Shown: positions 12,201 through 64,000 of the stretch, in pieces | How the letters are laid out: each line of letters begins with the position of its first letter | How positions within the stretch are numbered: the first letter of the stretch is position 1 | Assembly: GCF_947623445.1 (NCBI RefSeq) | Contig: NC_135244.1 | Span: 13,142,860 to 13,206,859 of the forward strand | Length of the DNA: 64,000 nucleotides | Direction of reading: 5' to 3' | Source of the DNA: Clavelina lepadiformis | Taxonomy: Eukaryota | Notes under the pieces: generated by a model | Database searches by the model: none | What the model saw: the letters and a program-made list of their open reading frames with translations, nothing else | What the model was told of the DNA's origin: nothing | Position numbers and translations under genes: made by a program

Positions 12201-14046
12201 AAACTTTGACTTTTTGGCTTATAATGTTACGGGATTCATTGCATATTGTCTTTACAATATTGGGCTTTTTTGGATACCTGTTGTTAAAGTAAGTTATCGA
12301 ACACTTGACATGTTTTCTTCTGTACGGTTATTATGCATTTCTTCAAAAGTGTTTGCTCAATGGTTACCTTTTTTATTTTTCCCAAATGGACTTTACAGAA
12401 ACAATATTTAAAGCAGTTTCCAGAAGGTGTTAACCCAGTGCAGCCCAATGATGTGTTTTTTACAATCCATGCTGTAATTCTGACTGCAATTACTATTGTG
12501 CAATGTTTCATTTACCAAGTAAGTACTTTGCAAATAATAGTAAATGTGAAAAATTACTATAAAAAGATACATTTCTGCTTGGTAAACATACCATTTATTG
12601 TTCTCTGTTTATCTCCAGCATGGTGGTCAAAGAGTTTCTCGTTTTGCAATGGGACTGCTTTCTGCCACAGGACTTGCAGTATTTGTCCTGCTATTTGTTG
12701 CTGTTGGACAAAAAATTTCTTGGTTGGAATTTCTAATGATTTTGTCATATGTTAAACTTGGAGTCACTTTGATTAAATACATACCTCAGGTGGGTTACTG
12801 GGCGTTTTAAGCATTTTTGTCACAGTCTACAACTCTACATTATATTTTAAAGAATAGAATAGGATTCTTATTGCAGGACAAAGCAGCTCTCTCGTAGCTG
12901 CAGTTAGTTTTAAGTTTTAGCAGTTAGTTTTTACGCTTTTAACTTCATATGTCAAGGCTTTGATACTCATGTTCAAGTTATGAATTTTAGTCCATATGAC
13001 TGTCGCTTATCACAAACAACACATTACTAGTCAGTAGTACTACAGTATGCGTTGGTACTATTTAGGATACAAGAAAACATTAGTTTTTTAGATTTAAATG
13101 AGAATTTCACACCAAAATCCAACGTGGTCGTTGTGGAATTAAATTTTAAAGTATTGGTCTCTTTTATGTTATACAAAAATTGTTCTGTAGCTAATTATTT
13201 TATAATACAAAATTGTTTTTCTACTTTTTCATGAAACACAATGTCAGTTATCTTTTCACGTTGTATGGCAGCTGAAAACAGTTCAGCAAAGCTAAATACG
13301 AAGTTGAAATACAGCTTCGCACAAAAAATCACTGCACAAACTAAAATAACAAAATTTGGAAACCAACACTAATGCCGTTATTAAAATCAAGCTTTGATGT
13401 TAGTTACAAAATACAAAACAATACAATATGCAAAACATCACAGTGGCAAATAATTGAAAACATAGTTTTTTTGTTTCAGCTCTACATGAACTATAAGCGC
13501 AAAAGCACGGTTGGCTGGAGTATTGGCAATGTGCTGCTGGATTTTACCGGTGGAAGTTTAAGCATTTTACAAATGATCCTTCAGTCGTACAATAATGGTA
13601 CTGTCAAGCAAGTTTAGTTTAGTGCTTTAGTACTGTGAAAGCTCATTACCTCCACACTCTATAGATCAACTGCACTAACTTCAGCTTCAGATACTTTACA
13701 AACATTCAACTTGGGATATAACGAGTGAATTGAAATCTGTAGGCATATTTGTAGCCGCAAAAGAGTATCATGAACAACTTATGCAAAAATAGTTTTCACT
13801 AATTGAAAGTAATGTCAAAAAGCAATTAATAAATTATCTCAATGTACGATGTTTTTAAAGTTATGCTTACTTTTTCCTCTAGATGAGTGGGACTTGATCT
13901 TTGGAGATCCAACAAAGTTTGGTCTTGGTCTTTTCTCAGTTTTGTTTGATGTACTATTTATCATCCAGCATTATATTTTGTATCGACATAGCAGGAAGCA
14001 AGATTATGTAGGATTGCTATCTGAATCCAATGAAGCTGAGGAGTAA
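9196..14046 (+). CDS. CTNS: cystinosin (lysosomal cystine/H+ symporter, PQ-loop family) gene, 9 coding exons
   Basis: Spliced translation aligns end to end with human cystinosin, for example [152 protein letters not shown]. All junctions are GT-AG with consistent phase. CDS is 1173 nt (390 aa). Stop TAA at 14044-14046. AATAAA at 14186 and 14213. Confidence 0.85.
9398..9564 (+). CDS. CTNS: CTNS exon 2 (lumenal N-glycosylated domain)
   Basis: Acceptor AG 9396-97. In frame with ORF 9358..9579 ([23 protein letters not shown]...YPHQ). Donor GTACTT at 9565. N-x-T/S sites. Confidence 0.7.
10248..10573. mobile_element. hAT-type MITE (326 bp) with 8-bp TSD, inside CTNS intron 2
   Basis: TIRs CAGGGGCCGGGAAC... 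and ...GGTTTCCAACCTCTG (imperfect inverse). Perfect direct repeat CCCTATAC at 10240-47 and 10574-81. No coding capacity. Confidence 0.7.
11620..11714 (+). CDS. CTNS: CTNS exon 3 (lumenal domain)
   Basis: AG 11618-19. [31 protein letters not shown]. Donor GTAAGA at 11715. Phase 0 to 2. Confidence 0.65.
11939..12094 (+). CDS. CTNS: CTNS exon 4 (TM1 and first PQ-loop)
   Basis: AG 11937-38. [51 protein letters not shown]. Donor GTTTGT at 12095. Confidence 0.85.
12189..12288 (+). CDS. CTNS: CTNS exon 5
   Basis: AG 12187-88. [34 protein letters not shown]. Donor GTAAGT at 12289. Anchored on ORF 12124..12411. Confidence 0.85.
12399..12518 (+). CDS. CTNS: CTNS exon 6
   Basis: AG 12397-98. [40 protein letters not shown]. 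Donor GTAAGT at 12519. Confidence 0.85.
12619..12789 (+). CDS. CTNS: CTNS exon 7 (second PQ-loop)
   Basis: AG 12617-18. [57 protein letters not shown]. Donor GTGGGT at 12790. Confidence 0.85.
13480..13597 (+). CDS. CTNS: CTNS exon 8
   Basis: AG 13478-79. [39 protein letters not shown]. Donor GTACTG at 13598. Ends in phase 1. Confidence 0.85.
13883..14046 (+). CDS. CTNS: CTNS exon 9 (terminal)
   Basis: AG 13881-82. [54 protein letters not shown], then stop. YVGL fits a Y-x-x-hydrophobic sorting signal. Confidence 0.85.
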
Positions 14047-19108: not shown

Positions 19109-20983
19109 GTAAGTAGCCTTGCTTTTGCATAATTTATATATTAGACGGTAACAGTACCTTATAAAAAAATGGCAACCAAAGAATGTTACTCTACCATTCC
19201 CGTTACTGCGTAGAATTAGGCCATACAGCTTTCTCATAGGCTAGTATTGCAGATTCAATATTGGAATGAAACGGGCATGTGATACTTTCTGCAGCCAAGT
19301 AAATTAAAATTTTTAACACCTAACTTGTCCCAGGAGCAAGTAAGCAAAAACCTTTTAAAGAGTTTTCCCTTTCAGTTAACCCATCGTTTGATAAGTAACA
19401 ATTGTGACATCTTAATACAATTGTGCCATTTGAATGCTAACGTGGTGTGAAAATGTTATTGGGAAAGATATAATCAATCAAGCAGACTTCCCTATAGTTC
19501 ACACCTTCTGCGTTCATTTTTCCCATTTATTTTGACAAGTGAAGACGCAAAAATGTACTCTGTCCCTGTGCGCTGAAAATCCGAGTTACGCCTCTGGTTT
19601 GACAACCACTGGCGATACAGTTGTAATCCTGTTAGGAAAAACATTAATGACATTTGCTCCTGTTCAGTGGCGGTGGTGAACTGTTACAATTTCGGGCAAT
19701 ACATCATCATAGGTGCTGACTTAAATGGTTACAGAGTGGCCACGCCACCCCATAACCACTGCTACATGGTGGCGACGGCGGTTGCTCAGAAGAATAAAAA
19801 TTATACTCTTTGCTACAGGACAACATAAAGTGTAGGTAAAGGCAGTGCACCAATTTTACCACAAACCTACCATTAGTTAACTGCTTTCCCGTGAGGATTA
19901 CGCAACACTACACTGCAAGTACTGCAAGTACAAGTGCAAGTACACATAATTTTTGGCCGGTGAGCAATGGATCACCCTCTTCGTTGAGGCCAGTCAGATG
20001 GTTGTGTCAATTGTGTTTTTTAGAACCACTTCGCAAAATTTGCACATAACATTGCTTTTTTGTACTGTTTTTGTGTTTTCGCTAAACATTTTATGAAGAA
20101 GGTTTTATGATTCAATCTTCAAGATTTACTACAAAGTAAACAAAAGCATTGACTGTCACATGTGAAAAAAAAATCCAAAATTAGGTTTCTAAAATCTTCT
20201 CTTAAGTTTCAAGCGTCAAAGCACACCAAACCGCCTGTAAAGAGATTATAGGTGAACCTGACCTGAAGTAACTCAAATCCAATATATACGATAAACAGTG
20301 CTCAGGTCATTATCTTCAATGCAACGAAATTTATAGGCGAGTTGTTGAAAATCTTTAACCATCGATTGAAATGTTTGCAAAAGAACTAAGGAAAGAAGAC
20401 AAAATGCAATGCACAACGGTAATGGAAAACTACGCACTTGTGACCCAAACAAGTAAAAGTGTATCTGACTTGTTCGACGTCATTGTGCAACATAACAATT
20501 TGAAACTAGGCCAAATTAATACATCATTAAAAGCAAAGTAAATATGTGCAATGCAAGAAGTCGCATTTTACCACATGGTAATCCAGTTAATTATAGTTCT
20601 ACACACGCCAGGGCAATGTATTTGACTTACCACCTACAATTAATTGATAGGTGGTGGTGGTAGGTACACATGCAAAAGTTATTTCTCTTTTTCGACTACT
20701 AACTTCGATCAACATTGTCAGCACTAATATCAACCACTTGCGATATAAAGCTGTTGTGTCTTTAGTTTCATAAGGTATTACCAAAGAAAAAAGATTATAT
20801 AATTAGTAAAATTAAATGCTTTTTGAGCATTTGTTTTTCCACAATTCTTTTAAATGTATTCACTATCACATAGAATGTTTTAGTAGCGCTAACAAACGTG
20901 AAATATGCATAAATTTAAATGATGTTCAAATAGTGGAAAACAATGTCTTTTTATAGTAATAGGTAGTACTACTGTACTTACAG

Positions 20984-27100: not shown

Positions 27101-30100
27101 CCAGCAAACATTTTTACTATTATTGAAAGTCAATGTATAGGGATGAAAATAAAACAATATTCCTTGAAATAGGAAATAACTATTTCCTTTCACATAGGTC
27201 AACATGCAGGGAGAGGTTGTAGACTCTGGTTCAACAACTCTTGGCTTTAACTTGTCAGGTTATACTCTTCACTCTGCTATTCATGCTGCTCGACCTGATG
27301 TGCATTGTGTTATTCATGTGCATACAACTGATGCTATAGCTGTACGTAAAATTTGAAATTTTGGAAAAAAGTTTGGGACATGCATTTTTCAGAAAACATG
27401 TAACACTTTATCGTATTCTTGTCAAACAGATATCTTGCATGGAAGGTGGCCTGTTGCCAATATCACAAGAAGCGCTTATTGTTGGAGATGTTTCGTATCA
27501 TAATTACCATGGTATCCTTGTTGACCAGAAGGAGAAGAAAGCTATTCAGAAACATCTTGGGCCTACCAACAAGGTTCTAATGAATTGCCTTGCCTGATTA
27601 GGCTTCCACTTCCCTTTTGCTCATTTTAGATACTTCATCCCTTGATTATTTAATTGATTTTGCCTGAATAAAAATGTTTCTTCAACAACCACAAGATCTT
27701 GCAATAGATCACACTTAATGGAATGGTTACTTATCTACTTCATATTTATTGCATTGTTATATTACCATAGTGTGTTAAATTATGGTCTTTGCAATGTATC
27801 TATGAGTTTGATTTGTTGTTAAAAATGCTTTCTCAATGTCAATTTGGTGTACAATCATTTGGTAAATAAAAGTAATAATGCAGCTTAAGTACACATTAAT
27901 TGGTAATTTTCTTCAAAGTACATAGGCATTGGTTGTAAATTATTAAGGACTAAGGAGGCCGTTTATCATATGTTATAGGTAATGATTCTTCAAAACCATG
28001 GACTGGTTGCTTGTGGAGAAACCGTAGAAGAAGCATTCCACTACCTCTATTTTACCATGATGGCATGCAGTATTCAGGTAAATTTGCTTTTTGTTTTATT
28101 GCTGAATAGTTAATTTTTACATTTAATGGATAATGGTTGTTGTTGCTTTTTATTTTATTGCTAACGTTTAATCTGTACATTTAGTGGAAATGGTTGTTGC
28201 TTATGTTTTTTTACATTGCTATACTTTTATTTAAAGATGAAAGCAATGTCTTGTGTGAAACCTGACAAGCTAATCCATTTGAATCGATCTTTGCTTAAGT
28301 CTCGCACAGAGGAGGTTGGCAGAAAAGATGTTACTGCTGGCGTTGAAAGTTCAATTAAATGGGGTCCTGGTGAAATGATGTTTGAAGCTTTAGTTCGCAT
28401 GTTAGATGACATGGTATGATTGTCATATATCATTTGTAATTTACTTTTGCGTTTGTGGAGCTTGTCATGTTCACCGTGCAGCATTTTGTTCTCAGTCATA
28501 TCTTAGTTTTTTCAGTTTTTTTCCCTCAATCAGAAAGGTATAAAATATAGATATTTAACTAAATTATTTATGATTGAAGCAAACTTTTATAGTCTGTCAA
28601 AAATAATATGGCAGTTTTAGATGTAATAACTGTTGTAAAATTGTAAACTGGCTCAAGAAAAAATATTTTGCCAAAACTAATTGATGTAGAGTATTTTTGT
28701 AAGAACAGGTATTTGAGCATGGGGTCCGTTATTTGCGGAGTGCTCATAAAGTTGGGGGGCATGGTCAATATGTTGTATGTAAACCATTTCTTTAACTATT
28801 AAAAAAACTATGGAATGAAAATGTTGGTGCCAGGCAGCATTAAATTGAATTTTGAACCATATTACTTTTGTCTACCAAAGTCTGTTGGAGGCTATTTGTG
28901 GTTTCTAATGAAGGTTGTAAACTTGTTATGTTAACTGCAGTGTAACACTTTGTGTAAAACGTTTCATTATACAGGTATATTTCTCCAAGAAATGTTTGAT
29001 TGAAAGGTTTAGAAATTTATTTAAAACAATTGTTGTGTATCATCTCATTCATGTATATGTATAACATTGTATATTATAAATAGTGTTTATAGTTTTTTTG
29101 GGCTACAGTAAAATATGAAAAACAATTTTCATCATCGTGGATAAGTTTGACAGACAACTGTAATCAAATATACTTACCTTAAGCTATGAGTTAGCAAGAA
29201 ACAGCTTAAATGAAGTGCAATATTACCTTATTTTTGCTTACTTACTAGTACATGCAGATTTTTTGGAATGTTTTATTTATCATTCTCCTTTTGCTTGATA
29301 TATACTTTTTTATCACGTATTATTTTGTGCAATAAGGGTTATCGCTCTGGGTATGTGTATCGCAATCCCATTCTAATGAAGCAGAAGCCAAAGCCTAAGA
29401 GTGGTGTTGAAGTACCTGCAACTGCTGTGGGCCATACAGCTGTACTACCTGAAGACCTGGAAGGTTTGTTCATAACTATAGCTGACTTACTTGCATCACC
29501 ATTCTCTGTATGTCCACAGCTATTTTATCATGATTAGTTAATATTCAATGTACTAAAGAAAATGAATCTACATAATTTTGAAGTTATGACACAAATTAAA
29601 TTTTCTCTAAATTTTGTGGCACACTTGCTTCATTGTGGTTTTTATGTTAGTATAGGTCACTTGTCACTTTTTAGCATCTCCTGTCATTACAAAAGAGATT
29701 CTTTGTGGAACAGACTTCAAATAAATGTGCTCATGATCACAAATTTAATTAATACCTCAAACTATATTATGAAAGGATAGGTTCTCCTAGAAAAATGCAC
29801 CCTTTTATTTTCAAAATTTCTTTATCTTATAGACATAATCGCATATGTCCAATGGCCATGCACTTCATAATATCACCATAATGGGTGTAGCTTCAACCAT
29901 ACACTTGAATAGTTTGTTTGCCAATAAAACTGATACTCTATCTTTCTTTGACTGATTGCACACAATTTGCTATGCTAATGCTACACTATATTACACACAA
30001 ACTGTACTTTCAAGTACCTTTTTTATAGATAAGTTTGAAGATACGTTCAACTCAAACTGATTTATTCCAGATGCCCATGATTCTCTTAAACCCACGACAA

Positions 30101-38407: not shown

Positions 38408-41400
38408 GTCAGTACCTTTTTTGGTTAATTGGCAGTTGGTATGGCATGGTATGATATTTTATATTGTAGTATAATTACAAAATTTGTTAAATTATCGTAT
38501 ATGTTTTTACTTTAACCGCAACTTTCCACAGGTTGGACAAATTGGTGGTGGCATGGTTTCTTTTTGGTGTTTTCAATTTTCTCTTCCATGAGATCATATT
38601 GGTTACTGAGCTTTGTAAATTTCCCGTGTAATTAAAAAGGGTGTGACAAAATGTTGCCATAGCGTAGTAACGGGGCATGTTGATATTACATAACTAGGTA
38701 ATGGCTTATCTCATTGCTTTATATTTTATTGAAGAGTAGTTTGGTGCAATTGTGGAAGCAAGAATGTGCGCTTTTCTTGTATCCGCTATCAAGTGGATGT
38801 TATGAGTGGGTGAATTGAGTGTAATAAAATTTGTTAAAGTATTTTTTCATTGGTTTTGCACGATTCGACCATTAACTTTGTACTGTCTTGAAAAAAATTT
38901 ACTTTAAGTTGTTTCTTCCATATTTTTAAATGTATAGGCCTATGTTTAACTTTACTGCCAAGTTCCAGCTATCGATGTTTCTTTTTTGTACTCACATCAC
39001 TAATGAAATCTTAGAGAGCAATGTTACTGGCGCATGGAATTGTTTGATCTGGAGTAACCTGTAGGCTATAGCCTACATATGCTTAGTCGCACCGTTGCGA
39101 GGTGGATAAGATTGAAAAAAAAATGTTTGGTATTTTTAACTATATTAGCTATGTAATACTCCATTCGCTTGTATAGGGAGCATTGCACAAACCCATGAAA
39201 TCGACAAAGAAGCCTTTAACTAGGCTAAGCCTAACTACGGATAAGTGAATGACATTAAAAAGTTGCCCGACAGAGTAGTATGATATGATATCACAAACTT
39301 TATTCTCAGACTGAGGAAATCTTTCCACAAATTAAACTCGGTGATGATTCTCATCGCTCGAGCCTCGGCTACCATTCTAATAACAGAGTTGATGTCAAAA
39401 ATGTGTAAACTTTAATTACGCAGACCGTCGCTAAATTTCTTGCGCAAATCGCCAGACTTATATTCATTCATTCCAAGTACGGTAGTATGTAACAATTTTG
39501 CACGATAGAAATTGGTACAGCATATAAGCTGACTGTTGCTTTAGTGGGCTTATAGGTCTACAGTACTTTTGGGTTTTTCAAAGAACGAAGTTAAACAAAT
39601 CTGCTGCTGAATGCTGGGTTATTTAGGACTTAGGATTGTTATAGTTACATTGAATTGCGTTTTGTTGATATTGTTGCAACTCACTAGATATGAAATCTTT
39701 AGATTCGAAATTCTACATTTGCTATCTCTACTCTAGAAACCATTAGGATTCTACTTTTGCTATCCCTAGACTGACATAACAAAGTGACCTTGTCCGTTGT
39801 CACTCTGAAAAGCTGTGTATGAACTCATGATCCCTTCTGGTCTGTTGTTGTAGTTTTCTTTTGTGTTACATATTATATGTTGGCAATTTTATAACATTGT
39901 ACTGATGTCATATAGGCTATATTGTATTTTTGTGCAAATATTTTATTTAGGTCAAAAAGGACTTCCTGACACGATTAATGTGGTAGATGTGTATAAAGAG
40001 TGCTTTCTTCTCTTGCAAATCCTGGGTTTCAACAAAAGTTTTATTACTGAAGTTATTTGCATATTAAACAATGAGGTATACATTTTAGAAATTCAATGCA
40101 TTGTTGGTAGTTTTATAGGTTTTGCTTATAATTATTATTGTTAAAAACAGGAAATAAAGCACTGATAACGTTATAATATCATCAGATCTGCACGAGGATT
40201 CCGTAGGAATAAGGGCTATTTCTGACAACTAGCACAATAATATATAAATAAATATAATAATAATAAATCAATTTTATAATAATTAGTTGATGTTCGAAAG
40301 TTCGTGTAGAAAAATATAAATGAAGTTAACCTTTAGAGTGCCAGACTATGTCTTGTTTTTTATTTAATTATAATCATTAGTGATATATATTTAATTTATT
40401 CAATATATATATATCTGTAATTTATAATTGTTTTTTTTTTTTTTTTTTGGCAAGATAGATCAGGAATGTTGCTAAAAAAATTAAGTCGACCCAAATTTTC
40501 AAAACCTTGTCTTGCAATTTGACAGAGAGTTGATGAAAAATGAAACAGAATGAACTATTGCTGTTGGAAATTGATATATACCATAGTCATTATCAAGACA
40601 TTTTCATGCATTTCTGATCTTTTACCCAGATCTCAAATTGTTTTATTGGTTGTTTCGAGAACGTAGTAAAAACTGTATGATGTGGTGTGACAGGGCAATA
40701 CTAAAGTCATGTAAAGACTTTCTTCAGTTTTAGTAAATCTAATTAAATCAAATTGCACGCATAAATTTTACTCGTAATTCAATATAAATACCAGATGTGT
40801 ACGCAAACAATAACCATGAAATTACATACGGCCAAACTAACGTGCGGATCTAATACAGGTATCAAAAGGGCTTAGTGACGATCCCAAAAGCAAGAATTTC
40901 ATTGATTATTATAAATGTAGTTATTATTTTGTCAGCAGTCGGATTGTTACATTTTAATGGCAACATGGCATGACAATGTGTCCTTGTTAATAGACAAGAG
41001 TTTGGCTAATAAATATTACACTTATCATTACAGTAAACATCAAACCGATTTCTAAAAATTGAAAGGGAACTGTTTTGCAGTGTTAAAAGTGTTTTAACCG
41101 CCGCAATCAATAAAATGTTAGTTCATTAATTGAGAAATTGCAGCAGTTTTTGTTGGTGGTTATGTCAGTGCTGCTGTTGCACATTTTTTTCTGTTTTTTG
41201 AACTGTTGCCATTTTACCCATTTTCCTACCTATCCTCTAATAAAAGTTAGTTCTTGTTCGAGAGCATTAAGTTCTGGTCTTTGTTTGTTCTTGATCAGCG
41301 TCAGTGAAGAAAATGCCGATTCACACGAGTAAGTTATGGCAAATGGTAATATGATGCGGCACATCGGAGACCCTCTGCCGGCACAGTTTGAGAAACCCTG

Positions 41401-44400
41401 GGCTAGATTACTGTACTGCATGTGGAAAACTTTTCACACAAACTTAAACCTTAATTTGGCGTTAAGGAAAACTTCCTTTGAGTTAGACACCCTTAATATA
41501 GGTATTATTATTTTACTTAAAATAATAATCTTTTCTAGATCAATGACATTTCTTTGATTGATCTGGTTGAGTTATGTTTCATTGTTATAAATATGGTTCA
41601 AAATGATGATATTGGTGATGGAAAACTACTTGCTGTATTTCAAAAGGTTCGATGACTTATTTATGATACTCCAAAATGGTACACTACATTTATACTAAAC
41701 ATAAGTAATCAATTATGTTTGTGTTGTGCAATTTGTACCACACAATCTGACTTTATATGTGCGTTTGTAACTAAATGTTTTTATTATTAGATACTGGTTA
41801 CTGTGCAACAATGTGGAAGTGTCAAGCACTACAAGTTTGATGGCAGCATGAGTGGAGCTGAATTCAAACAACAACTTACAAAAGACTTGTGTTCATTTCG
41901 CTGGCCTTGTGGTTCTGTCATCCACTTGACAAGCATGTTCAGGTTTGTTCTTAAATGTGAATATGTTGCTTTTTGACATATGTCAAGGTATTTGACAGGT
42001 TTGGTGACACTTAATCACGCGACACTTAATCACGCGACGCTTAATCACCGACACATAATCACTAGGACATTTAATCACGCGACACTTAATCACGCGACAC
42101 ATAATCACTAGGACATTTAATCACGCGACATTTAATCACACATTTACAGTATCGAAAATTGCATGTCTACACACGAAAAAACAAATATAAACCTGAAAAG
42201 AAATTGTTAAAATGATTAAACATTGCTTGCGCAGATAAGGCTACCGTACACACTAGGTAACAATGTCATGCATAGGAAATGTAAGCAACTGCACGAAGAT
42301 AAACTAAAATCTCGCTTGACAGATAACGGTCAACTGTGTTTTGCACGCGCAGTTTCAGTGCCTTGTACCGCATTGGAATAGAAGGTTGAGTACCAGGAAT
42401 TCCTTTGCAGAAACGTTGCACGTTGCATTTGAATGTCTTTTTCAATTCCCTGTATGAAAGTCCACAATGTCGGGTGGTGGCATTGAAAAAGCACTTGGGG
42501 ACCAAAATGCCAACCTTCGACTGCATTTGTGGTTCTTGCAATGCAACCTGCCCCGGCTTCGTAATGATTCCAACTTTCGATTGGAAAGATGGCTGAGCCG
42601 TAATTTTCACCACGTCCCGGACGTCGTCTGCCTCTGATATATGTGTGTTCGAAATACGAAAGCAGCTCAGGCATCTTCTCGTGATCGGGCATGCTATCAG
42701 CTAAGATCAGAAATGACTCGACTACGTCAGAGGAAGGGACCATGGCTAAGGCTGGTAAACACCGAACAGCTGTTCTTAATTCGTCATTAGACTCGTAGTC
42801 ACATTTCATGCCAATTTCATTAACTTTGCGCAGGACGCTTTGCGTTAGGTGAAAATAACAACTCCTAACATTTGCTGTAGGAAATGCAGTGCGGAAAGCA
42901 CTTACTGCGGCAGTCTCAAAATCGAGCAAAACGCATTCCGAGCTTGAATTACTGAATTTTCCTCACGCTTTTCCGACATTCGTTCTCTACAAAATAAATT
43001 CAGGCTATTCAGTACTCTGTTTGATGTGGATGCCAATACCATTCCCGAAAAATTTCAAATGGACCTTATTCAAGTGTGAATACATATATTTTGTTCTTTT
43101 TGTGATTGGTATGATTGAGATTGCAGCAATGTAGCGTAATATACTGAAGTGAGTGTGAATTATAGTATTAATGAAAATTCCGGCCCGCCAAAGAGTTGTA
43201 CAGTCGACATTTGGCCTGTGACTAGCAAAACGTTGCCGAACCCTGCTATAGACAAAGGCGCTGTCCAAGTGCTGTCGCATCCAAGTGATTATGTGTCGCG
43301 TGATTAAATGTCGCGTGTATAAGTATCCAAGTCGCGTGATTAAATGTCCTAGTGATTATGTGTCGCGTGATTAAATGTCCTAGTGATTATGCGTCGCGTG
43401 ATTAAGTGTCGGTACACCATTTGACATTCACGCAAAAAAGTGCCCACCTGTAGATACAGGTTTAATAATATTTCATTTAGAAGAAACAAGGGATGGGCCA
43501 GTTGCTTGTCGGCCATATCTAGAATTTTTTTAGAAAATTCGGCGAGTTTAGCAGTTTTTTTAAGATGAAATTACCATCAGCTGTTTACATTGCACATAAA
43601 ACATGTGGCTGATTGGGAATATTGTATTACACCAAGTGGTAACCTTTTAAAGTAATTTGTTTTAATGTAGTAACTGTCACTTGTCACTGTCAGTCATGTG
43701 TGGAGTCAATCTTGCAAGACAATTAGATTTCGGTAATGCATTTTATGCATGTATGTGTGAAATGGGTGTAGGTCTTTGTTTGGTTTGTGGCGTTAGAAAA
43801 GTGTTAAACGTTTGTTTCCTGGAAAACTTGTTGTATGAGCTTGACCATGAAGCTAGTGTAGGCAATTACTGTGTCATTGTCCATTTCAACCAAGTTTTTT
43901 CTTCTGCCGAGTGATGCCATACTGTTTTTTGCCTACATTGAATAAATTGATGCTTCATACTGAAAACATTAACCACCTTCTCATCGAGGAATTGATGTAA
44001 AAAATAGTGATCCTATTTAGGAGGAGGTCGTTAGTCCGATTAAAAGTGTCGTAACTCAGAACAGGCAAGAGAAGGTCTTGTGTAAGCAAACAAGTTGTTT
44101 GTCAACTAAAAAAATAGAACATTACAGTTGCTTTCATCATCAATTTTACCAACTTGGAACTTGCCCTCTCTACACATAAGTAATTGAGGGGGCAAAGAAG
44201 AAGATTTCTTCAGATAATTCCTTCGTGCTTCCTGTTACAAGCTTTGTTTCAGCGTGACAAATGTCTAAGTTTTACAATATCTGTACAAAATTCATCTCCT
44301 ATTTGCAAATAATTAATCTAATGGCCAAAAAAATCTGTCCGATCTGGTACACGCGACGCGTGAAAAAAGCGTAGCAAACAATTGGTACGCTGCCTTATAA

Positions 44401-47400
44401 TTAAGATGAATGATTTTATCCAAGAAAGAAAAAATTGTTTAACCTCAAAATCATCTTCTTAATTCTGTGAAAGATCAAGAAATATTGCCAGATTTTGCAG
44501 ACTTTATTTCATAATTTAGTACAAACCAGACTCCAAAAAGAGTTCAAAATCTTGCCAGATTGTATTTTTTCAAGTTCAGGCCCATCCCTAGAATGAACCC
44601 CATCAAATTCTTGGTTATCCCAACCTCTTACTACTAACTGTTACTACCTCTTACTACCTACTGTTTTTTGTATTTGATATTATTTTGCAGGGAAATTTAT
44701 CTTAATCCATCTGAGGCAGATATAGTCACTGCAAAATTGCTCGAAGAACTTAACGGCATCAACGCCCAGGATATTCCTCCTTTTATATTTCAGCTTGTAG
44801 GTTTTGCTAGCGCTTACAACAAATTTCAAACAGTACTTTGGGGAATTTTAAGCCACTTTAATGCTTTAGAATTACAAGCAAATACAGGATCACACACAGG
44901 TATCAAAGCAGTTCAAGTGATTGTAATCTCATCCTTTGTTTAAACTTTTCAGCAATAAAACAACATAAATACTTTTTAAAGACCCAATTGAAATGGACTC
45001 TGGACTCAACAAGGTTATTAACCATCTTGAATTAAAAAGCATGGAAGGCACTGTTCTCATTTATTTTGGAAATGCTATTCGACAGAATCAGTTAATTGGA
45101 AAAGGGTTTTTGAAGATTATGAAAGTTAGTAAAATTCAAATACAGTAAAGCTTGTTAACCTGATTTGCATAGTTAGAATTTTGAATAATTCAAAAGTGAT
45201 TTAACCAGTTGCAAGAAATCTATTACAATGCATGTAATTTGTAAACACTTACCAATAACTTGAACTCCAAGTGTCTGTATGGTTATTTCAAAATTAATTG
45301 AAAAATCTTTCACTGTAAACACAAGCACTGAATTAATTTCATTGATGGATTCTTATAGACTAAAAACATTAAAAAGGTTGTTCTGTGTTATGTACTTTAA
45401 TGCCTCTTGACCTTAAAACTCTCCACTGGACTCGAGCGTTTAACATTTAAGGAGGTGTATGAATTTCAAAAAAGGGTAAATTTCTTTGTTTATTTTTTAT
45501 GTAGTAAAATGCAATTACTTGAAAACTGCACCATGGGGATCCTGAATGTTTGCGTGTCAACTAGGCTTGCCTGATACCAACTTCTACTAAAATATGACGA
45601 AAATCACTATCTCTAGTTTACGTTATGTAGGCCCAAAGCCAAAAGTGTATTTATTAGTCTAAGAACACACATTTTCCTCTTTTTCATGCCCTTTTTTAAC
45701 TAACTTATGCATTTGACCTGGAACTTTGAAACACGCCAACTGCTAGGGGAATTTCCAGGCTAAAAAACAACACCAACCATGCTGAGAGCTTAACAGAATC
45801 AGAGAAATCTTATATAGAAACCTAATAGCACCCTGGCAATGCTTTTTTCAAAAACATAACTCATTAATTTGACCTACCACATGAGTAAAAAGCCAAAAAT
45901 TCCAAAGCGACAGACATTTTTACATCACAATGAAATTATCTCTTGCAATACTCTAATGTAGCATGCCAAAAATTTCCGATTTAACCCATTTACCAGCAGA
46001 TAGAAATCATAGTTCTGTCATCAAATGCATTTATTGCAGTACCAAAGCAAAAATTGATTACTGAAAAACGTGATTCGTGAGTGAAAACAATTGAGGAAGC
46101 CTTTACAACTAGCCCCATGTTGACTATGGTTTATTTTGCTTTGCTGATATTGAGACTTGGTAGTTGTTAGATGAACCTTGGTTGGTTTCAGTTATGCTCA
46201 CGATTCCTTGTCCTGCACACAAATAATAAATGAATGAATGAATGAATGAATTAATAGATAAACTAACTAACATGCCCTAATACAAAGCATTTTGCTACAT
46301 AACAATCAGCAGATAAAAACAAATAAAAAATTGCCCATGTTCTGCAACCTACATTTATTAAATTTATCCTTATCATTTGATGTGCAACACCAGAAATAGT
46401 TTGCACTCAGCTATATGAGCTAGGTATGGCCGGAACACCAAAGAAGTTGACCTTTGGATGAAAGTGAATGCTATGTTCAAGCCATCCATTCATTCAATCC
46501 ACAAGTTCTATTAATAATAACATGAAAACACCTGACTTGAACAGGTTTTGCATGGAAGCACCACGAAACCAATCAAGCAGTGCAAACCTCAGACCTCTGT
46601 GCAAACACAGATTACAACAACCAAAATACTCCAAACTCTACAGCAGGGGTGTTCAAATGATTTCTGCCATGATCCACCACAACCAAACCTGACAACATGA
46701 TGATCCACTAAATACGAATAGTAAATATATTGGACATGCTTTAATTTTTATGGTGCTTTATTCATGAAAATGTACCCTACAACATAATAATAACTTTGTA
46801 AAAGTCAAAAGTCTCCTTGACTTCAATCAACACCTGGTCATGCAAATCCTCAGCGATATCAGTGCATCTCCGTGTACATGTCAATCTGGAGAGCGGAAGA
46901 GTTGTCATGCTAGTGATCACTTCTTTCTTACTTGGATGCATGATTTTTACTGCTTCAACAATGCATTCTTTAACGACTTCAGCATGACTGTATGTCATCA
47001 TCCGCTTGCCCAGAATGTGATTGATGCTGAGTGTTGCTTCTGTGGCTTTTGATTGCTCAGACACAAATGTTGAGAGACATTGTCTCTGTGAGCTGGCAGA
47101 CTCATCTAAACAAGCAACTTTCTGTTTTCTGGCCCATGAGCCAGGCTTGTATTTCTTATTAAAATGTTTATGATGAGTAAAGAAATGTCGTTTGATGTTT
47201 TGACTCTTTATCATGCTTAGAGTGCAGTCACACAACAAACATTTGGGTTTATTGCCTGGGTTGAGCACAAACAAGTACTCTTCAGTCCATTCACTATTGA
47301 ATTGTCTGTTTTCTGAATCAATTCTGCGCTTCTTACTGGCCATGTTAATAATACCTCTAATGATGCGAGAAAGGGAACAGAATGGCAGCCTCAAACTTTT

Positions 47401-50400
47401 TTTTCTGTTCAATATTCAATGCTTTCTTGCCTTTGTGTTTCTAATTGAACAAATGTCTGCGTATCGACCAACAAACAATGTCTGCGTATTGACAGCCACG
47501 TGTTAACCCTATCCTAACCGGGCTCGCGACTTTACTATTTTAACTAGGTTGTGGCCGACCCTGCACACACATTTTCAATCGTTAATTACTTGAAAACTAT
47601 ACGTCGTAAACTGATCGGATTTTTACATGTTAGTCGCAAAAACATCTGGCTTCCTGTATATATCATAATTGTAAAATTAAAGAAAGAACATTTAGTGTAA
47701 ATTAAGTATTTCTACAAGTGATACATTTCTAGAAGTTTTTCTTGTTTCGCCGCGGCCCCCCGCTGTGCAGAAAACCAGCTGACCGCGCGAAGAGAAGACA
47801 AGAGAATAGTTAGTTAGTCGAGTTAGTGGTGCGTAAATGAGTAAACGAAAACAATACGCTTCAATGCTGAGAGGGAGCAAAATTATGCTATAATAAATTC
47901 AAAAAATTAATTTCAACACTGACAATTAGTATCCACATGAAAATACTGTAAAAAGTTTTTTTTTCAAGGCTACATTTGAAGATCCACACAAAAAGTTGAA
48001 AAGATCCGGATCCGGATCGCGATCCGCCATTTGAACAACCCCGCTCTACAGTATACATATTTTAAGACTAGAACCATCCTTGCATGCAATATTTCTGGGT
48101 TTAATAGGACAGTAGTTATGTTTATTGTGGCTCAGTTGTTTACTCCACCTCTTGCAAAGTTTAGCATAGATGAAGTATGGATAATAAAAGTAAAATATCT
48201 GCAAATATTTTCCATAAGCTTTCAATAGTTTGAATTTGAAATAAATCAAACTTACTGAGTTGATTTATTAAATGGTATTTTCAAACCAATAGATGTTGAA
48301 ATGAAAGAAATGACTGACCTGACTAGTGGTGGAATTGAAAAAATTTAACTTCTGCATCCAACGCACAGAATTAGTGCCACTGATTCCAAAATGGCCTGCA
48401 TCGGATGCGATAATGGTTTTCAAGGAAATTGAGGCATCACCGTGAGTCAGTTGCTGCGTCTCACCAGTGATGTCTGCTTTCAAGCAGGAATCATACGTAT
48501 CGTCATCATACAAGCTCTACAAGCAAAACACAACAAACCCAAGGAGAAAAGCACTAAACCTTTAGGTTACGACGGCTGTGCTGGGTAATAGTGTAAGAAT
48601 CATGCAGGTGATTCTCAATTTTATGGATTTGCCCAGCCCATGCACATTATCTTTAACAAATCTCTCCAAAGAAACAGTGAGCGTTTACGAATACTACAAT
48701 GAAATGTCAATGTCTGGAATAGAGGAAGGGCTACAAAGCCGAAAAAAGCATGTGGGAGAAAAGCCTTCTGTACTTAATTCACTGCAAGCAGAAAGTCAAT
48801 ACAACACCTCAGCATCGATCATCAACAAACCTGGACAACTTGCATCTCAATTAACCGGTGCAGTGGCTGGGAATATGACTCCTTGCCGAAGGGCATCCTT
48901 TGTGGCAAATCAAACAAAGGAGTGGAAATATTGCAAACACCATGAGCATCCCAGTAAAGTGTACATCCCAGAACTTGCGCCTATTGGAAATAAAGAAGAC
49001 ATTGGCAAGGAAGGGAGTGGTCAAACTCATCCATTAAAAAAAGATGACTGCACAACTCACCGGTTCAAAGTACTTTCCAAAGCCATGAAGAAACTTGCAC
49101 TAAGTGTCAAAAGGTTCTGCCATGAAACCAGCTCTAAGCAATGAGATAGAAATGCGACTTCTCTTGCACGTGAATCAAATCTTATACTCCAAAAAGAGTT
49201 TTGTGCTGCACTCAAAAAATATCCAAACATTGCAGAAAACTTATTCTGACAAATGAACGTTGTTACTGAAACCTGTCTCTTGTGCTTGCATGGTGATCAC
49301 ACCCAAAGCCACTTGAGTTTGGTCTGTAACAGTCCAAAGGTGACATACAAGCCGGCATGCTTTCAGCCTTCAACTTTGTTGCGTCTAAACAGCAATGATA
49401 AACAGTTGTGGAAAGCTATCATTAACAATTTATCTCCAAGAACAACATTGTTACAATGGTACATAATAAAACCACCAATAAAGTCGAATTGCTAAATTTT
49501 TTCTTGAGACAGGTGATACCTAAAGGAAAAAATTACTGAAGTTCTGCAACGGGCAGAGCGTCTAGAGCCATATTTTAAAGGAATGAAGGTCTTGTGTTTG
49601 CATTTATGGCAGTATCAGAATTTCCTGAGCCGAGCCATGACAATGGGTAAGAACACTACAGAATCTGGCAAAAGATAGAGCAGTGAACATAAGCGATGGA
49701 GTTCATATCATATAAGGCAACATAGATCAGCAAGAAAACGGCTGTTGTCGTATACGAAGGAAAACCAGCCAGAAATTTATGCCAGCAACTCGAACATCAA
49801 GAACTATAAAGGTATGAAGATGCTGGTGTATTAAGCAGTGATATTTTTGACTAATGTACTGAAGTTTTAAATCTGTATGGCTAACAAACACAATTACTGT
49901 ACGAGTTCTGCCCATTACAACTTCTACTCTCTTGCTTGACTGATCTTGGCTCAAGTGAGAAGGTTCGACACACAACTTTTGTGGTGAGTATCTTATTATT
50001 CGAATTCTGACCTCACCAAACTTTCTTGCACAAACACCATGTATGATACAACATGAACGCCGAGAACTTTTTTGTGTACTCTCAAAGCACCCTACCCATT
50101 CCTCCCTGTCACACAGAAAATAATCAACTGTCTTACACTTACCCATTATTCTATGTTGCAGTACTGCAACAGTCGTTGTAACTATGATTTTTACAACGTG
50201 TACCACTGTGTACAATGAAAATTGATCTGCTCTCATTGTGCTACAGTATTATTGGTCTATCTATCTGCCCGATTGGAAAGTTTGCTAAGTGCTTGGGGGC
50301 TTAAAGTTATTTGCACGTATAATTGCTAGTGTATCATTTTTACACAGTTCATTTCTCACCAAAACAACAAACTTTCCAGTCTGGGTTATCTTTTACAACA

Positions 50401-53400
50401 GTTCATCCTGGCATCCAAGCAGACTATTGGATCCTAGATGAAGCTAAACTAAACAAAAATACAGAATTTTCATCAAATACATTATACTAAGTAATCACAT
50501 CTAGAACCCATACGCCTCCTTAAGAAGCCGTGTTGAGATTGTCCCGCATATTTAGTTAAAAGATTGCAGAGACTTAATTAACATTAGAATCAAGAATACA
50601 TTATTACTAAACTTTGTGAGGTAAAAGCAATTTGACTAGTAAGATTATTTCAGAAGTGTTTCAGTATTTTATGATTCTAGTATGCTGGCCTAAGTGAGTT
50701 CTAGGATACCGGTACCTGGTTTAGATGGCTATACCATTTCAAGATTACCAGAGTTACATTTAATGCCATTATCTCACTGTAATCTTGCTTTTAGATCAAA
50801 CAAATTTTAATCTTTTTATGAAAAGCGTATATCTTAGAAGGAAAAATGTACTTATTATTATATGTATTATTATGTACAGTCATATTTTCATCATTTTTTC
50901 CACCAATTTAACAAACTTCAGATAACTTTAGACACTGTAGTAAGTCAATATGAGACGTTACTGTACTTCATTTTACATTTAACCCTGCTAATAATTGAAT
51001 GTTTTGTGAAATGGATTTTCCAACGTCAATATCTATGTTGTTATTTATCTCTTTTTGTGACCATTTGACATTGAAAGCTTTCCGTAATTTTTACTTTGTA
51101 GGATGCCAAGCAAAGTCTTTCGCCCAAAGTCATAACACCATTTTTTGTTGCACTTGGCTTGGTGGTTGCTCAAGATAACAGGTTTAGTGAAGAAGCACAT
51201 AGCATTCTTCGTCTTTTGATTTACAGGTAGTAGAATATTTCATTCCCCACTTTGAAGGTGCTGTTTATTTGTTCAAGAATTTGTGCTGTGGTGTTTTTTC
51301 TTTATTTTATTACTGTAGTTTAGTATATTTTATTGTCTCACTGATAGATATTCTGACAGTAGAAGCTAGTTTGCAATTCTTAATCTTGGTGTATTAGTTA
51401 CATTAAATTTTTGCAAACATGTATGCAAACGTATATAGCCTATACAGAGATATTAAGAAGCTACCAACGCAAAACTACATCTACTACCTGAATTTTGGCT
51501 TGCATCAAGATCTAGGTTATGACTGCCTACAGTCCTAATTTGGACAAAATCCATGTACTCAGTTTTCTATAACAACTGCCTAAACTTTACAACAAGTTTT
51601 TAGCTTAAAATTTTTGGACAAAAACTCCAAAATACCAAAAATTCAAACCCACACAAAACTTACAACTTAGCCTAGACCTGGAACCAGCTGTCGCCAAAAC
51701 AACAACAAATTACTCCGCATCGACGTCACATGCGCATTGGACCGGAAAATTTCTTACTTTTTTTAATATGACGCATTGAGTGCGAACACGCAACAATCAC
51801 TGGGTTGCCGGCTCAAAATTGTCTTTCTATTGGGAAGTGACCCCTTAATAAATTGTCGTTCTTTTAACAGTCGATTCGATCAACTGTCGGTTTGATCAAC
51901 TGTCGGTTCGATCAGCTGTCGTTCGATTAATTGTCGTTCGATAAACTGTCGTTCGATTAATTGTCTTTAGATTAACTGTCGCGTCACGGGGACAAGTATT
52001 ACAAGATCTGAGGCCAAGTATTCGGCCAGATACTGGCCTACTTTTTCTCATGCCAAGAGTAGTTGGGTGCATATTTGACAATAGTTATTTAGGTGATTGT
52101 GATATGAAGCATGTCTTAAAACATAATATTAAATGTAGAAAAAGTGCAAAAGGTTACTGCAATTTGTAGAGTAAGGCTGAGCCAATATGGCGGAACAATA
52201 ATTTGTAGTCAAAGCGACACCTAAAATATCCATACATTTTAGGTATTGATTTAGGCCTTTATTAGTATGCATAAAAATCATTTTACCATATATGTATTGT
52301 TTTTCATCCCAAAAGCACTATTAATAGTTTGTGTTTCCTAACAAAATCTTTTGTTGTCACTTCACACTTCAGCATGAAAAAGTGGCTGACCTGCTTGCGG
52401 CACTTTTTGCATCTCCAAAAAATGGTTCAAGCTTCAAAGCACTTTAATGACAGTTGAGACTTTTGTTTTACATAAGCATTCTTTACTTATCCAGGCCCTT
52501 TTGTTTGGAATGGACTACCATGCGTGTTTAAGTTGCGTGTTTAATTAAATGACACGAGTTTTTAAAAAATCGTCTATTTAGTTACTCACTTTCTCGTTTG
52601 CTTATTTGTATGTACATGGAAACTGAGGAAACTTCTAAATCCATTTTATCTTGGTACGAAATTTTTCGATTTAAATTATGTTATAAAATACCAGTCTCCA
52701 CTTTGTAATTCCATTTTAAATTTTTGTGTACTAAAATATACTATAAAAAAGGCTTATTCTCAAGTAACTAACTATCAAAATATCACGTTTTTGCTCAGCT
52801 TTATCTTGTTTTATCGCTTAGCTATAAAATGTTGGTTTTTGGGTCAAAAATTTAGTCATTGCCGCAGTGGTGGGTATTACGTGGATTGTGGCCGTGAAAA
52901 CCAAAATAGATGATCATCTAAGAAAGGCATTTCCCCGTTAACCAATTATGTTGCTGCAATCTTTCTGTCTTGAATAATGATAAATTATGGAATTTTTACC
53001 TTCCTCGTTATTTTACTGCTGGTTTAGGTGGGCTGGTTGAAAATGCTATGCCGCCTATTAAATGCAAAATTGGCTGGCACCAAGGAAAATTTTTAGCAGC
53101 ATCTACTGTAGCAAGTAACCAAAAATACTGGCATAGGAATTTTTTTATTTATGAAGAAAAACAAAAATAGAAATTTCAAGACTGCAATCTTTATACCTGT
53201 TTTAAATTGTTTGCATTTTCATGACATTTTAAACTGATTGTGTTTGTTCGGAATTCTTCTTAGATGTTTTCAAGATTCGCATAAAATCAAGGGCTGCAAG
53301 TTTTTGAAAGACCATTCATGTAACCCACCAGACATCAACCAGATTCTGCAGACTGTTGTAAGTAAATGTTCTTAGTAATGCTTGCATTTGTTTGACGAAA

Positions 53401-56400
53401 ATTTTTAGTACGCAAATAATTTATTACATTGTAGTCTAATAAAATGTGGTGGTTGCCCAGTGTACCATGCACTTTTATTCGATGTGTGCAGCGCATCGAT
53501 TGTCTGAAGTTTATTTATTTTGTAAAAACAAAACAGGTAAAAAATTGTCAACAGTGCTGGGATCACATTTTACAGGGCCTAGTGAACCTATGTTTTAATC
53601 TAATGGAACACTTTGGTCCTAAGCAAGGTAAGGAAACTAGGAATTTTTCATTAACCAAAAATAAAATTTTGCATTAGTTGTATTGTGCTTTTTCGTATGC
53701 AAAGATAAAAGTATACAAAAGACATATGTAAAATAAAAAGAAATATTAAAAAAGATGTTAATAGAAATATTACTATAATAAACCTGAATGTCACTGGCCA
53801 AGGTTAAAAATGGACAAGAACTTTTGCTTTGCAGTTATTCCTTTCTTGTTCGCATGTAAAGAGGCCATTCGTTTCTCCTGAGTAATGTATTTACATGCTC
53901 TGTCTAAACTAATTTTTTTTTTCAAATAGCACCTGGAGTGAAAACAATTAAGAGGATGATGAAGAAAATTGACTGTCCCAACCAAGATGCTTGCAATGCT
54001 GGGATAACAATACTTTCTGTGACATTTAAAAAAAATGAAGTATCTCGCAATGAAATCATATCTCAATTGCTCAACAGAATTCAAATCAATCTGAATGTTC
54101 CTTCTTATCATTATATTCGTATGTTTGTGTATTCATGCTTCTTTGTCTGTTAATGTTAAGTTAATAGATTAAGGTTTATTTGTTTACCATGACTTTAAGT
54201 TTTCACCAAATTCTTTCGGTTATCCTGAAGTTTCAGTTTGGTCTTTAGGTTTGTTGAAAGCCATTGTTAAGTGTTTTCCACAAGCTGTGCTACAGTGTAT
54301 AAGCCAGGTAAAAATGAAGGAATGTAACTCACTGAAATAGAGTTTTTATGGCAAAGCTTACATAACTACCTATTTTGTTTTGTGTTTAAAACATGAACTT
54401 TATGAAGCAAATAAAAGAATTATCTCACTGATAACTTAACTTTGTTTTTCTGTGATGATTGTTTCTTCTAGAATCAAACATATGAAGTGGTTATTAAATA
54501 ACTGCAAGAACGACTGTTGCTAAAATACTTTTGATTTGCATTCAGGTAAAATATTTGTTCGAAGATCTTGCCATGCTACATCCCTACAATGTTCAAAAAC
54601 TTTTGTCTGCTCTTCCTCCAATTTTGAAAATAAATCCTGCTTTGAGAAATAGCCTCATTTTAGTGCTTCGAAAGTCGTTGTCCTCAAGGTAATTGTTTTA
54701 TAATTTATAACAACATTGCCTTCGTTTCTGTGCTTGGTAGTGATGTATGACATCACAGTTGAAGTTTATTTGTTAAATTTTTAAATATAAACTTTTAATC
54801 ATATTTGTAGACATCTTAATTCACGATTGTCTGCACTTTATGGCTTTCTTTTGATGTTGAAACATTTCCCTTTATCAACTTCAACAACCCTTAGCCAAGT
54901 TTCCAGTCAGTCTTCACAATCAATATTTTCTACTGCAAGTCTGGCAAGTACTGTTGCATGAAACATTCAAACTATATAATTACCCTATTATAGTAATAAA
55001 ATAACTCTGCTTTTGTTTGGCTGCAGCATGTTGAAGCTGATGTACACAGACCATCATGTGCAGGGAATAACAACGAAATGTTGTGTACTGAGATATTGCA
55101 AGCACTTAGAAGGTGTCTCTCACAGCAGTCTTCTGTCAGAAGTGAATTGTATCTTGGAACATACGAAGTAATCTGTAAAAATCCACGACTTGCAAACATG
55201 ATCATAGAGGGGATGCTTGCCCATTTAAAGTGAACTTTGTTGCACAAACTTATACACTACTTTGTATCATCAAAATCTTTTCAAATTGTTAGTTATTGGA
55301 TTGTTGTGAAACCTTAGATCCGGTGATGAAGCCTGCTGGTTTCATGTAAACAGATCTTAGCTAGAGCAGTTTTGGAATAAACATTATATGTTATAATTAG
55401 TATGATTTGGTGCTTGATGGTTTTTCACAGAAGTTCTAAATACCTACTGGATTTTAATAAAGTTGCTTTGAAACACTTTTTTGCAGAAAGTGCTATCAAG
55501 AAGACTCTGATATTATTCCCCCATTAGACTTAACCAGTTGTTTTGTCGGAAATGCTGAAAATCTTTCCATACAAGATCCTCTACCTATTATGCTTGCATC
55601 CCTACAGTATTGTTTGCATTATGTAAGTTAATTGATAGACTTTTGGTTTGTACTATTAATGTTCTTTGTACCGAGTATAAAGCATCATACTGGGCTCTCT
55701 TGTCATATTGATATTTTTTTGTTTTTCTAAGGTTACTCACAATACTACTCTTGATGGCAACGGTGATGAAATTCTTGAGACTTTTGTTATTAACCACATT
55801 CACAAGATTTTTAAGTCACTCACTGCACGGATGTGCAAATGTGATTTGCAGGACTTTCAATTTGTAAGTTAGCCTAGCACTTACAGTAGCTGGATTGGTG
55901 CACCAGCGTTTTTAGGGGTTGCATAAACATTATGGGTTGTACGTTACAGGTGTACGGTATTCATCACATGCCACTTTTTGACAGTTTCACCGTTCATATA
56001 ATTTGTATAATGATTAATTATTTATTAAGTTAGCTCACAAAATTTGCATACCCACCAATTTCTCAATAAAAAAACAGTTTTGACAAAGGTTTTGAAATAC
56101 GAGAGAATCTACTAATCGCTTTTGGCCACATGAGTCCTGTAAAATTACTGAACTTGCGTTTATGTCATTATTCAGTGCTTTCCAACTTTTTCCTGGGCGA
56201 TGGTCTGTTTTATCGTCATTAAGAGAAAATATTTTATTCTGATATGGTACATCTTTGTCAAATAGAATTTGTTTACACCATGCTTGTCTGCTGCAGCAGA
56301 ATGAGCGGTATATGGCACAAAGTATGATAGTTTTAGGCAAAACCATGTCATCATCAGAATAACATCTATCTATCCCGTTTAGAAACACTGCTATACCATG

Positions 56401-62460: not shown

Positions 62461-62605
62461 TAGGTCGATTCAACCCACGGACGATTCAACCAAGGACCAT
62501 TCAACCTAGGACGATTCAACCAAGCACCATTCAACCTAGGACGATTCAACCAAGGACCATTCAATCCACGGACGATTCAACCCACGGACGATTCAACCAC
62601 CGGAG
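62461..62605. repeat. minisatellite, 15-bp unit (CGATTCAACCAAGGA) x about 9.5
   Basis: Gives the PRTIQ-repeat artefact ORF 62436..62687. Confidence 0.8.
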
Positions 62606-63560: not shown

Positions 63561-63776
63561 CTAATGGCTGCAGCATTCAAAAAGGGGAAGAAATAGACTG
63601 CTAGCTAATTTTTTCTAATGGACAGTAATTTTTAACAAAACTCAACAGTAACGAGTAATAATTGCTGTCCTAATGTTAAGTACTTAGTTATTACAGATAC
63701 TTCACTTTTACTTTTCAGTAGTGCGAAAGCAATACTCAAATATATACGTAGACTGTAGAGTATTTTAAGCTCGAAA

Positions 63777-64000
63777 TGCCAAGAAAGATAATTTCAGATA
63801 ACGTGTTTTCATCGAATAACAGCGAGAGAAAGAGGACTCGTGTATACTCTGGAAGCTATCTAAAGCTAGGATTTGTTCCAGATTCTACTGACGAAACAAA
63901 ACCGTACTGCTTGTTGTGCTGTAAATCTCTTTGTAATGATTCGATGAGAAACCAAAAACTGAAAGATCATCTCAAAAATGTTCACTCAGAGCATGCAGGG
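63777..64000 (+). CDS. hAT (Buster/ZBED5-like) transposase, N-terminal 74 aa, open at window end
   Basis: MPRKIISDNVFSSNNSERKRTRVYSGSYLKLGFVPDSTDETKPYCLLCCKSLCNDSMRNQKLKDHLKNVHSEH. Same YLKxGF...P.CLLC..L.N.SM....LK.HL...H box as the 46777..47412 copy, but a different sequence. No stop before the end of the window. Confidence 0.55.

Follow-up and report, generated by a model that had tools for sequence, protein, structure and literature searches.

About 98.3% (~98.3%) of animal introns are of the GT-AG type, and GC-AG introns account for less than 1% (PMC7072748). An exchange of T for C at position +2 is tolerated at donor sites which are otherwise close to the consensus (PMC2490688). In human FANCI, K523 is the ubiquitinated residue, while S556, S559 and S565 are ATR sites (PMC7010609). 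The present analysis deals with a window (the whole stretch of DNA analysed, 64,000 nucleotides in length and numbered from its first letter) which contains the complete coding region of a FANCI gene, whose intron 13 combines a GC donor with an AG acceptor. The organism, Clavelina lepadiformis, is a colonial ascidian (tunicate).

Intron 13 closely resembles known U2-type GC-AG introns. It carries GC at 54944-45 (positions +1/+2) and AG at 55025-26, it has G at position -1 and AAGT at positions +3 to +6, so that the donor positions other than the GC are near the U1-complementary consensus (ctg/GCAAGTac; slashes denote exon/intron boundaries throughout), and, being short and pyrimidine-rich at its 3' end, it resides in a gene whose introns are otherwise GT-AG. 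Compared to this class, position -2 is occupied by T instead of A and a second in-phase GCAAGT is present 9 nt upstream; neither difference is of substance. The donor consensus of U12-type introns is RTATCCTT. This motif is missing in the donor GCAAGTAC and the intron is not U12-type. Its removal restores both the reading frame and the conserved protein, at a position and in a phase which are the same in Ciona and in a ray. From these features we consider it highly probable that intron 13 (54944-55026) is an ordinary intron of the U2-type major spliceosome with the GC donor CTG/GCAAGTAC.

The FANCI gene and its exons 12 to 14

The identity of the gene as FANCI, proposed in a preliminary description of this DNA, is fully supported. 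In an exhaustive HMMER search XP_076812409.1 of Clavelina lepadiformis ("Fanconi anemia group I protein-like isoform X1", 1349 aa) proved to be 100% identical to the exons of the window, and a phmmer search matched the peptide encoded by exons 12 to 14 with the FANCI chains of chicken, human and mouse deposited in the PDB (E=1e-29 to 1e-25). Six FANCI domains of XP_076812409.1 (S1, HD1, S2, HD2, S3 and S4) pass the Pfam cut-offs; the S1-cap domain was not detected by the Pfam scan of this protein. A word-index protein search with a 160-aa peptide spanning the junction gave zero matches; queried with the full protein, it yielded XP_076812409.1 and otherwise just distant FANCI proteins, fragments derived from transcripts being absent. 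The features relevant to the junction are:

38236-59940, plus strand: complete coding region of FANCI, 28 coding exons and 27 introns, to which XP_076812409.1 maps exactly
54546-54688, plus strand: coding exon 12, ending in phase 2 (AG/GTAATT) and holding K532
54689-54810, plus strand: intron 12, GT-AG, 122 nt, phase 2 (aag/GTAATT ... tttgtag/A)
54811-54943, plus strand: coding exon 13, 133 nt, with the S/TQ cluster, ending in ...SIFSTASL
54944-55026, plus strand: intron 13, GC-AG, 83 nt, phase 0 (ctg/GCAAGT ... ggctgcag/CAT)
54959-54961, plus strand: in-frame TGA which closes the reading frame of exon 13 if intron 13 stays in
55002-55026, plus strand: 3' end of intron 13 with pyrimidine-rich tract and acceptor (...tttgtttggctgcag/)
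55027-55229, plus strand: coding exon 14 (HVEADVH...MLAHLK), followed by the donor aaa/GTGAAC at 55230

Exon 13 begins at 54811 in phase 2 (AG/A) and its translation, ...GFLLMLKHFPLSTSTTLSQVSSQSSQSIFSTASLASTVA up to the stop, contains three SQ motifs; read from 54812, the frame is HLNSRLSALYGFLLMLKHFPLSTSTTLSQVSSQSSQSIFSTASLASTVA and terminates at the TGA. Exon 14 starts in phase 0 at 55027, directly behind ...tttgtttggctgcag, and reads HVEADVHRPSCAGNNNEMLCTEILQALRRCLSQQSSVR.... The translation, phases and coordinates given in the preliminary description for the entry into exon 13 and for the start of exon 14 (HVEADVHR) are thereby borne out and, according to the mapping of all 28 exons, 13 and 14 are indeed the correct coding-exon numbers. 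Judged by its motif, TAAC at 55002-55005, with its A at 55004 located 22 nt upstream of the junction, is a possible candidate for the branch site.

The monoubiquitinated lysine and the SQ cluster

The preliminary description had placed the equivalent of human K523 in exon 13. The phmmer alignment, however, pairs human K523 (LILVLRK in chain 6vaa_A, whose 1328 residues correspond to the native length such that its numbering can be read directly) with the lysine of LILVLRKSLSS, i.e. with Clavelina K532, which is encoded in exon 12 (AAG, 54672-54674). A lysine is present in exon 13 along with three SQ motifs, as had been described, yet this residue (MLKHF) aligns with human K545. The SQ motifs of exon 13 comprise S565-Q (54893), S569-Q (54905) and S572-Q (54914), of which S569 and S572 align with human S556 and S559 in the phmmer alignment. 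Hence, an S/TQ cluster about 30-45 residues (~30-45) downstream of the lysine equivalent to K523 is present in Clavelina. On the basis of this alignment K532 is the predicted equivalent of the monoubiquitination site and the SQ residues are predicted ATR sites.

The situation is different at the very end of the exon. While its last residues form an SQ site in vertebrates (human S565), they read ASL in Clavelina; at the same position AST/Q is found in Ciona and ASI-Q in an intronless homologue described below. The vertebrate SQ just before the intron is accordingly not conserved as such in the tunicates, the Clavelina sequence being ASL/H (54941-54943). As a separate observation, Ciona acquires a TQ motif at this place only through splicing, which brings the T encoded at the end of the exon next to the Q with which the following exon begins (locus L002, 7386-7388 and 7776-7778).

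Gene models support the junction at 54944

All junctions of the gene were solved against XP_076812409.1. Introns with GT-AG termini make up 26 of the 27, intron 13 being the sole GC-AG intron, and the junction 54944-55026 alone reproduces the annotated protein between exons 13 and 14. Across the junction XP_076812409.1 reads SIFSTASLHVEADV. The same SIFSTASL/HVEADV is found in all four public proteins, namely in the RefSeq isoforms X1, X2 and X3 and in CAK8689703.1, which belongs to a separately annotated assembly. According to the Clavelina genome paper, assembly and annotation were deposited in ENA, the latter having been generated by funannotate with RNA-seq, Trinity, StringTie, PASA and EVidenceModeler (PMC10950049). 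CAK8689703.1 most likely originates from that project, and the GC donor in models built on RNA-seq presumably reflects transcript alignments. The junction as given here is based on gene models and on the comparison between species.

The locus in the second assembly, GCA_961645235.1, shows 93-99.7% identity with the window, depending on the alignment block, and differs from it by many SNPs and indels. At the junction it carries exactly ACTGCAAGTCTGGCAAGTACTGTTGCATGA, the bases being identical at both GCAAGT motifs. Inside intron 13, just after the TGA, it differs by a 1-nt indel (AAAA versus AAA); such a frame-breaking polymorphism fits intronic sequence. Its protein, CAK8689703.1, deviates from XP_076812409.1 by eight residues and one 2-aa indel at identical exon structure and thus represents an independent allele. 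That a sequencing error, named as a refutation in the preliminary description, or an assembly error (C called in place of T, or an error of frame) mimics a GC donor, or that the locus is a pseudogene, is ruled out by this matching assembly from another project together with the intact full reading frame, all 28 exons giving an uninterrupted protein of 1349 aa with six FANCI domains; nothing was found in favour of it, and we regard it as practically inconceivable.

Strength of the donor and of its competitors

To score donors, a weight matrix for positions -3 to +8, with +1/+2 left out of account, was built from nothing but the 26 GT donors of the gene itself; in addition, a duplex energy was calculated for each site paired with the 5' end of U1. 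Four candidate donors within the region of exon 13 leave the exon in phase 0:

54944-54949, plus strand: GC donor ctg/GCAAGTac (ctg/GCAAGTAC); flanks 6.28 bits, U1 duplex -5.8 kcal/mol
54935-54940, plus strand: upstream in-phase GCAAGT (act/GCAAGTCT); 1.0 bits, -1.4 kcal/mol
54953-54958, plus strand: weak in-phase GT, a rival donor (act/GTTGCA, act/GTTGCATG); -5.6 bits, +0.7 kcal/mol
54899, plus strand: in-phase GT (caa/GTTTCC, caa/GTTTCCAG); -3.4 bits, -1.4 kcal/mol

The flank score of 54944 exceeds that of 23 of the 26 real GT donors, a figure which rises to 25 of 26 with leave-one-out scoring, and the energy of its duplex with U1 is in the range typical of real donors in this gene. By score it ranks first among the 828 GC dinucleotides located on the plus strand between the ends of the gene, and only 4 of the 2,482 GC dinucleotides of the window reach its score. 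The site is more than a chance match. As a bare hexamer, GCAAGT shows no enrichment in the window (40 occurrences versus 40.6 expected), so its frequency alone proves nothing; what counts for the argument is the phase and the position of the site together with the full donor context. Both GTs, in turn, score below all 26 real donors.

The existence of these two GTs corrects one point of the preliminary description, which had stated that every GT of the region gives the wrong phase. Both are in phase 0, although they are very poor donors, and the argument of exclusion by phase therefore fails; as far as can be judged from scores and alignments, it is their weakness and the cross-species comparison which would exclude them. 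The description was right about the two GCAAGT motifs: with either donor, 54935 or 54944, exon 13 ends in phase 0. Of these two candidates, between which it had not decided, 54944 is favoured by the SIFSTASL/HVEADV junction, while 54935 is disfavoured by its low score and by the fact that Ala-Ser is coding in other tunicates. Its central proposal, that the FANCI exon with the S/TQ cluster is immediately followed by a GC-AG intron, has gained support from the four gene models, the second assembly, the strength of the donor and the conservation of the intron position.

In vivo, 54944 would be used by U1 and the major spliceosome. On the general knowledge of GC donors, C at +2 would cost one base pair with U1, for which G at -1 and the perfect AAGT at +3 to +6 would compensate. 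Splicing would then join ...SIFSTASL to HVEADVH... with the frame kept, right after the ATR-type SQ cluster.

The orthologous intron in other species

The corresponding exon ends were compared in three further sequences:

Ciona intestinalis: ...TCA ACT GCT AGC ACT/GTGAGT ... ttttacag/CAA ACT CAA (SIFSTAST/QTQSQL), GT donor
Hemitrygon akajei (ray): ...GCC AGT CAG/GTAAAT ... ccag/GTG CAA GTG GAT GTG CAC (LSASQ/VQVDVH), GT donor
Tunicate-like homologue in an ENA assembly: uninterrupted 3918-nt ORF with ...TCT TCA GCT AGT ATA CAA... (SIFSSASI-Q), no intron

The intron of Ciona intestinalis (XP_078484803.1; L002, ~7389-7775) resembles intron 13 of Clavelina in being located after SIFSTAS plus one residue, in phase 0 and between the same flanking protein motifs. 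It differs from the latter in its canonical donor (ACT/GTGAGT as opposed to CTG/GCAAGT) and in its length of about 390 nt (~390), compared to 83 nt. From SIFST to NNE[LM]LC, the Clavelina protein spliced at 54944 has exactly the length of the Ciona protein. In Hemitrygon akajei (XP_072889339.1; L004, ~39585-41079) the intron is likewise in phase 0 and situated between ...SASQ and VQVDVH, but possesses the GT donor CAG/GTAAAT and is 1.5 kb in length. The preceding phase-2 intron, following LVLRK plus five residues, is also common to Clavelina and the ray (LVLRKAMFSS/GTGAGA in the latter). By this comparison, position and phase of the intron are common to tunicates and vertebrates, which makes the position an old one, and the change to GC is confined to the Clavelina lineage. 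The preliminary description had suggested looking at orthologues for a GC donor: position and phase are shared by Ciona and ray, the GC is not, both having GT.

The intronless homologue reads SIFSSASI-QSSAQH as one continuous ORF, which implies that Ala-Ser and one more residue belong to the coding sequence. It was found in ENA ERZ22157276 on contig ctg13818l (2.98 Mb; L001, 2001-5918) and constitutes a full-length FANCI homologue of 1305 aa with all six FANCI Pfam domains, about 52-54% (~52-54%) identical to Clavelina in the region of exons 12 to 14. Its single 3918-nt ORF without introns, facing 27 introns in Clavelina, could indicate that it is a retrogene or that its lineage has lost introns wholesale.

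Alternative readings of the junction

The donor at 54944 lies within a 9-nt tandem repeat of 2.4 copies (ACTGCAAGT, CTGGCAAGT, ACTG). Removing one 9-nt copy yields SIFSTAST/GT, which is exactly the exon end of Ciona, and makes a small duplication with a donor shift of 9 nt conceivable. Slippage may thus have duplicated the Thr-Ala-Ser codons and thereby created the near-perfect GC donor, splicing having moved 9 nt upstream from an ancestral GT, of which GTTGCA at 54953 would be the decayed remnant, with the length of the protein kept; additionally or instead, the two in-phase GC donors might be used alternatively, giving isoforms with and without Ala-Ser-Leu beside the SQ cluster. We regard this scenario as speculative and rather unlikely.

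Even less probable is a reading in which the first GCAAGT, at 54935 (act/GCAAGT), serves as the main donor (SIFST/HVEADV) or as a regulated alternative donor giving rise to an isoform devoid of Ala-Ser-Leu. Besides being in phase 0, this site would lead to a product whose length equals that of chicken FANCI in the phmmer alignment (SQAIGAT-QVQADVH), and an enrichment of GC donors among alternatively spliced sites has been reported (PMC2490688). Nevertheless, it reaches 1.0 bit where 54944 reaches 6.28, and a U1 duplex energy of -1.4 compared to -5.8 kcal/mol; none of the four public proteins makes use of it, both Ciona (GCT AGC) and the homologue without introns (GCT AGT) have Ala-Ser plus one residue as coding sequence, and the Ciona length matches the 54944 junction exactly. 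The alignments suggest that GCAAGT at 54935 is most likely not the main donor but coding sequence for Ala-Ser; 9 nt upstream of 54944, it could be a minor alternative donor.

That the weak canonical GT at 54953 is the true donor (SIFSTASLAST/HVEADV), the gene models being wrong in their choice of GC, seems slightly more improbable again. It is in phase 0 and, as the repeat reduced by one copy ends at this GT like the exon of Ciona, it may be the ancestral donor. With -5.6 bits, however, it falls below every one of the 26 real donors, its pairing with U1 (+0.7 kcal/mol) is not usable, its use would lengthen the protein by three residues relative to Ciona, and two annotation efforts chose 54944 over it. 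Minor use of this GT, or a different history of the donor, is possible. Finally, use of the GT at 54899, which would turn the SQ-rich tail of the exon into intron, is virtually dismissed since this site, albeit in phase 0, scores below all real donors (-3.4 bits) and would remove VSSQSSQSIFSTASL, a segment conserved in Ciona and in the intronless homologue which includes two of the three SQ sites. The junction at 54944 is accordingly retained as by far the most probable one.

Other features of the window

The 9-mer ACTGCAAGT of the donor repeat occurs four times in the window (0.8 expected), and at 19912-19941 on the plus strand it is tandemly arranged (ACTGCAAGT ACTGCAAGT ACAAGTGCAAGT). Three other GC dinucleotides, at 5384, 21259 and 30657 (plus strand), show donor flanks scoring as high as the GC donor of FANCI (6.3-7.0 bits); they may match by chance or serve other genes on this strand as additional GC donors.

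Within intron 4 of FANCI, the segment 42006-43411 contains two arrays of a 15-nt unit in inverted orientation, GACACTTAATCACGC being present in nine copies at 42006-42139 and its reverse complement in eight copies at 43285-43411. These arrays flank a minus-strand ORF of 199 aa (42330-42929) whose match to a MULE transposase is weak (E=0.006, below cut-off). This organisation resembles that of a Mutator-like DNA transposon which carries subterminal repeats and has decayed. Two further arrays with the same period and copy number, the units of which differ from that of intron 4, are located at 51854-51981 in FANCI intron 7 (TGTCGTTCGATCAAC, 15-nt unit, eight copies) and at 62462-62599 downstream of FANCI (AGGACGATTCAACCA, 15-nt unit, nine copies). 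The 6-kb intron 6 of FANCI harbours a minus-strand ORF of 211 aa (46777-47412) with a Spin-doc zinc finger (PF18658, E=2e-7), which is probably transposon-derived. A similar CxxC-rich ORF at 63752-64000 (plus strand), for which no Pfam match was found, runs off the end of the window.

The Pfam survey beyond FANCI covered selected segments of the window. Upstream of FANCI and on the same strand, there are exon-like segments of two genes: those at ~11900-14040 (plus) encode a PQ-loop protein (cystinosin-like, PF04193, E=6.5e-28), and those at ~27200-28110 (plus) a protein with the N-terminal domain of class II aldolase/adducin (PF00596, E=1.9e-26). Rfam and tRNA scans of the window revealed no structural RNAs or tRNAs.

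Meaning of the GC-AG intron

The GC-AG intron 13 of Clavelina FANCI is real and ordinary, and it is already contained in the RefSeq and ENA/GenBank gene models. At a rate of 1%, the chance of finding at least one GC-AG intron among 27 amounts to about one in five (~ one-in-five), and a single one is unremarkable. It matters little beyond annotation quality: gene finders restricted to GT donors would truncate or mis-splice FANCI at this point, beside functionally important residues. Of relevance to comparative work on the regulation of FANCI are the location of the K523 equivalent in exon 12 and the missing SQ at the position equivalent to S565.
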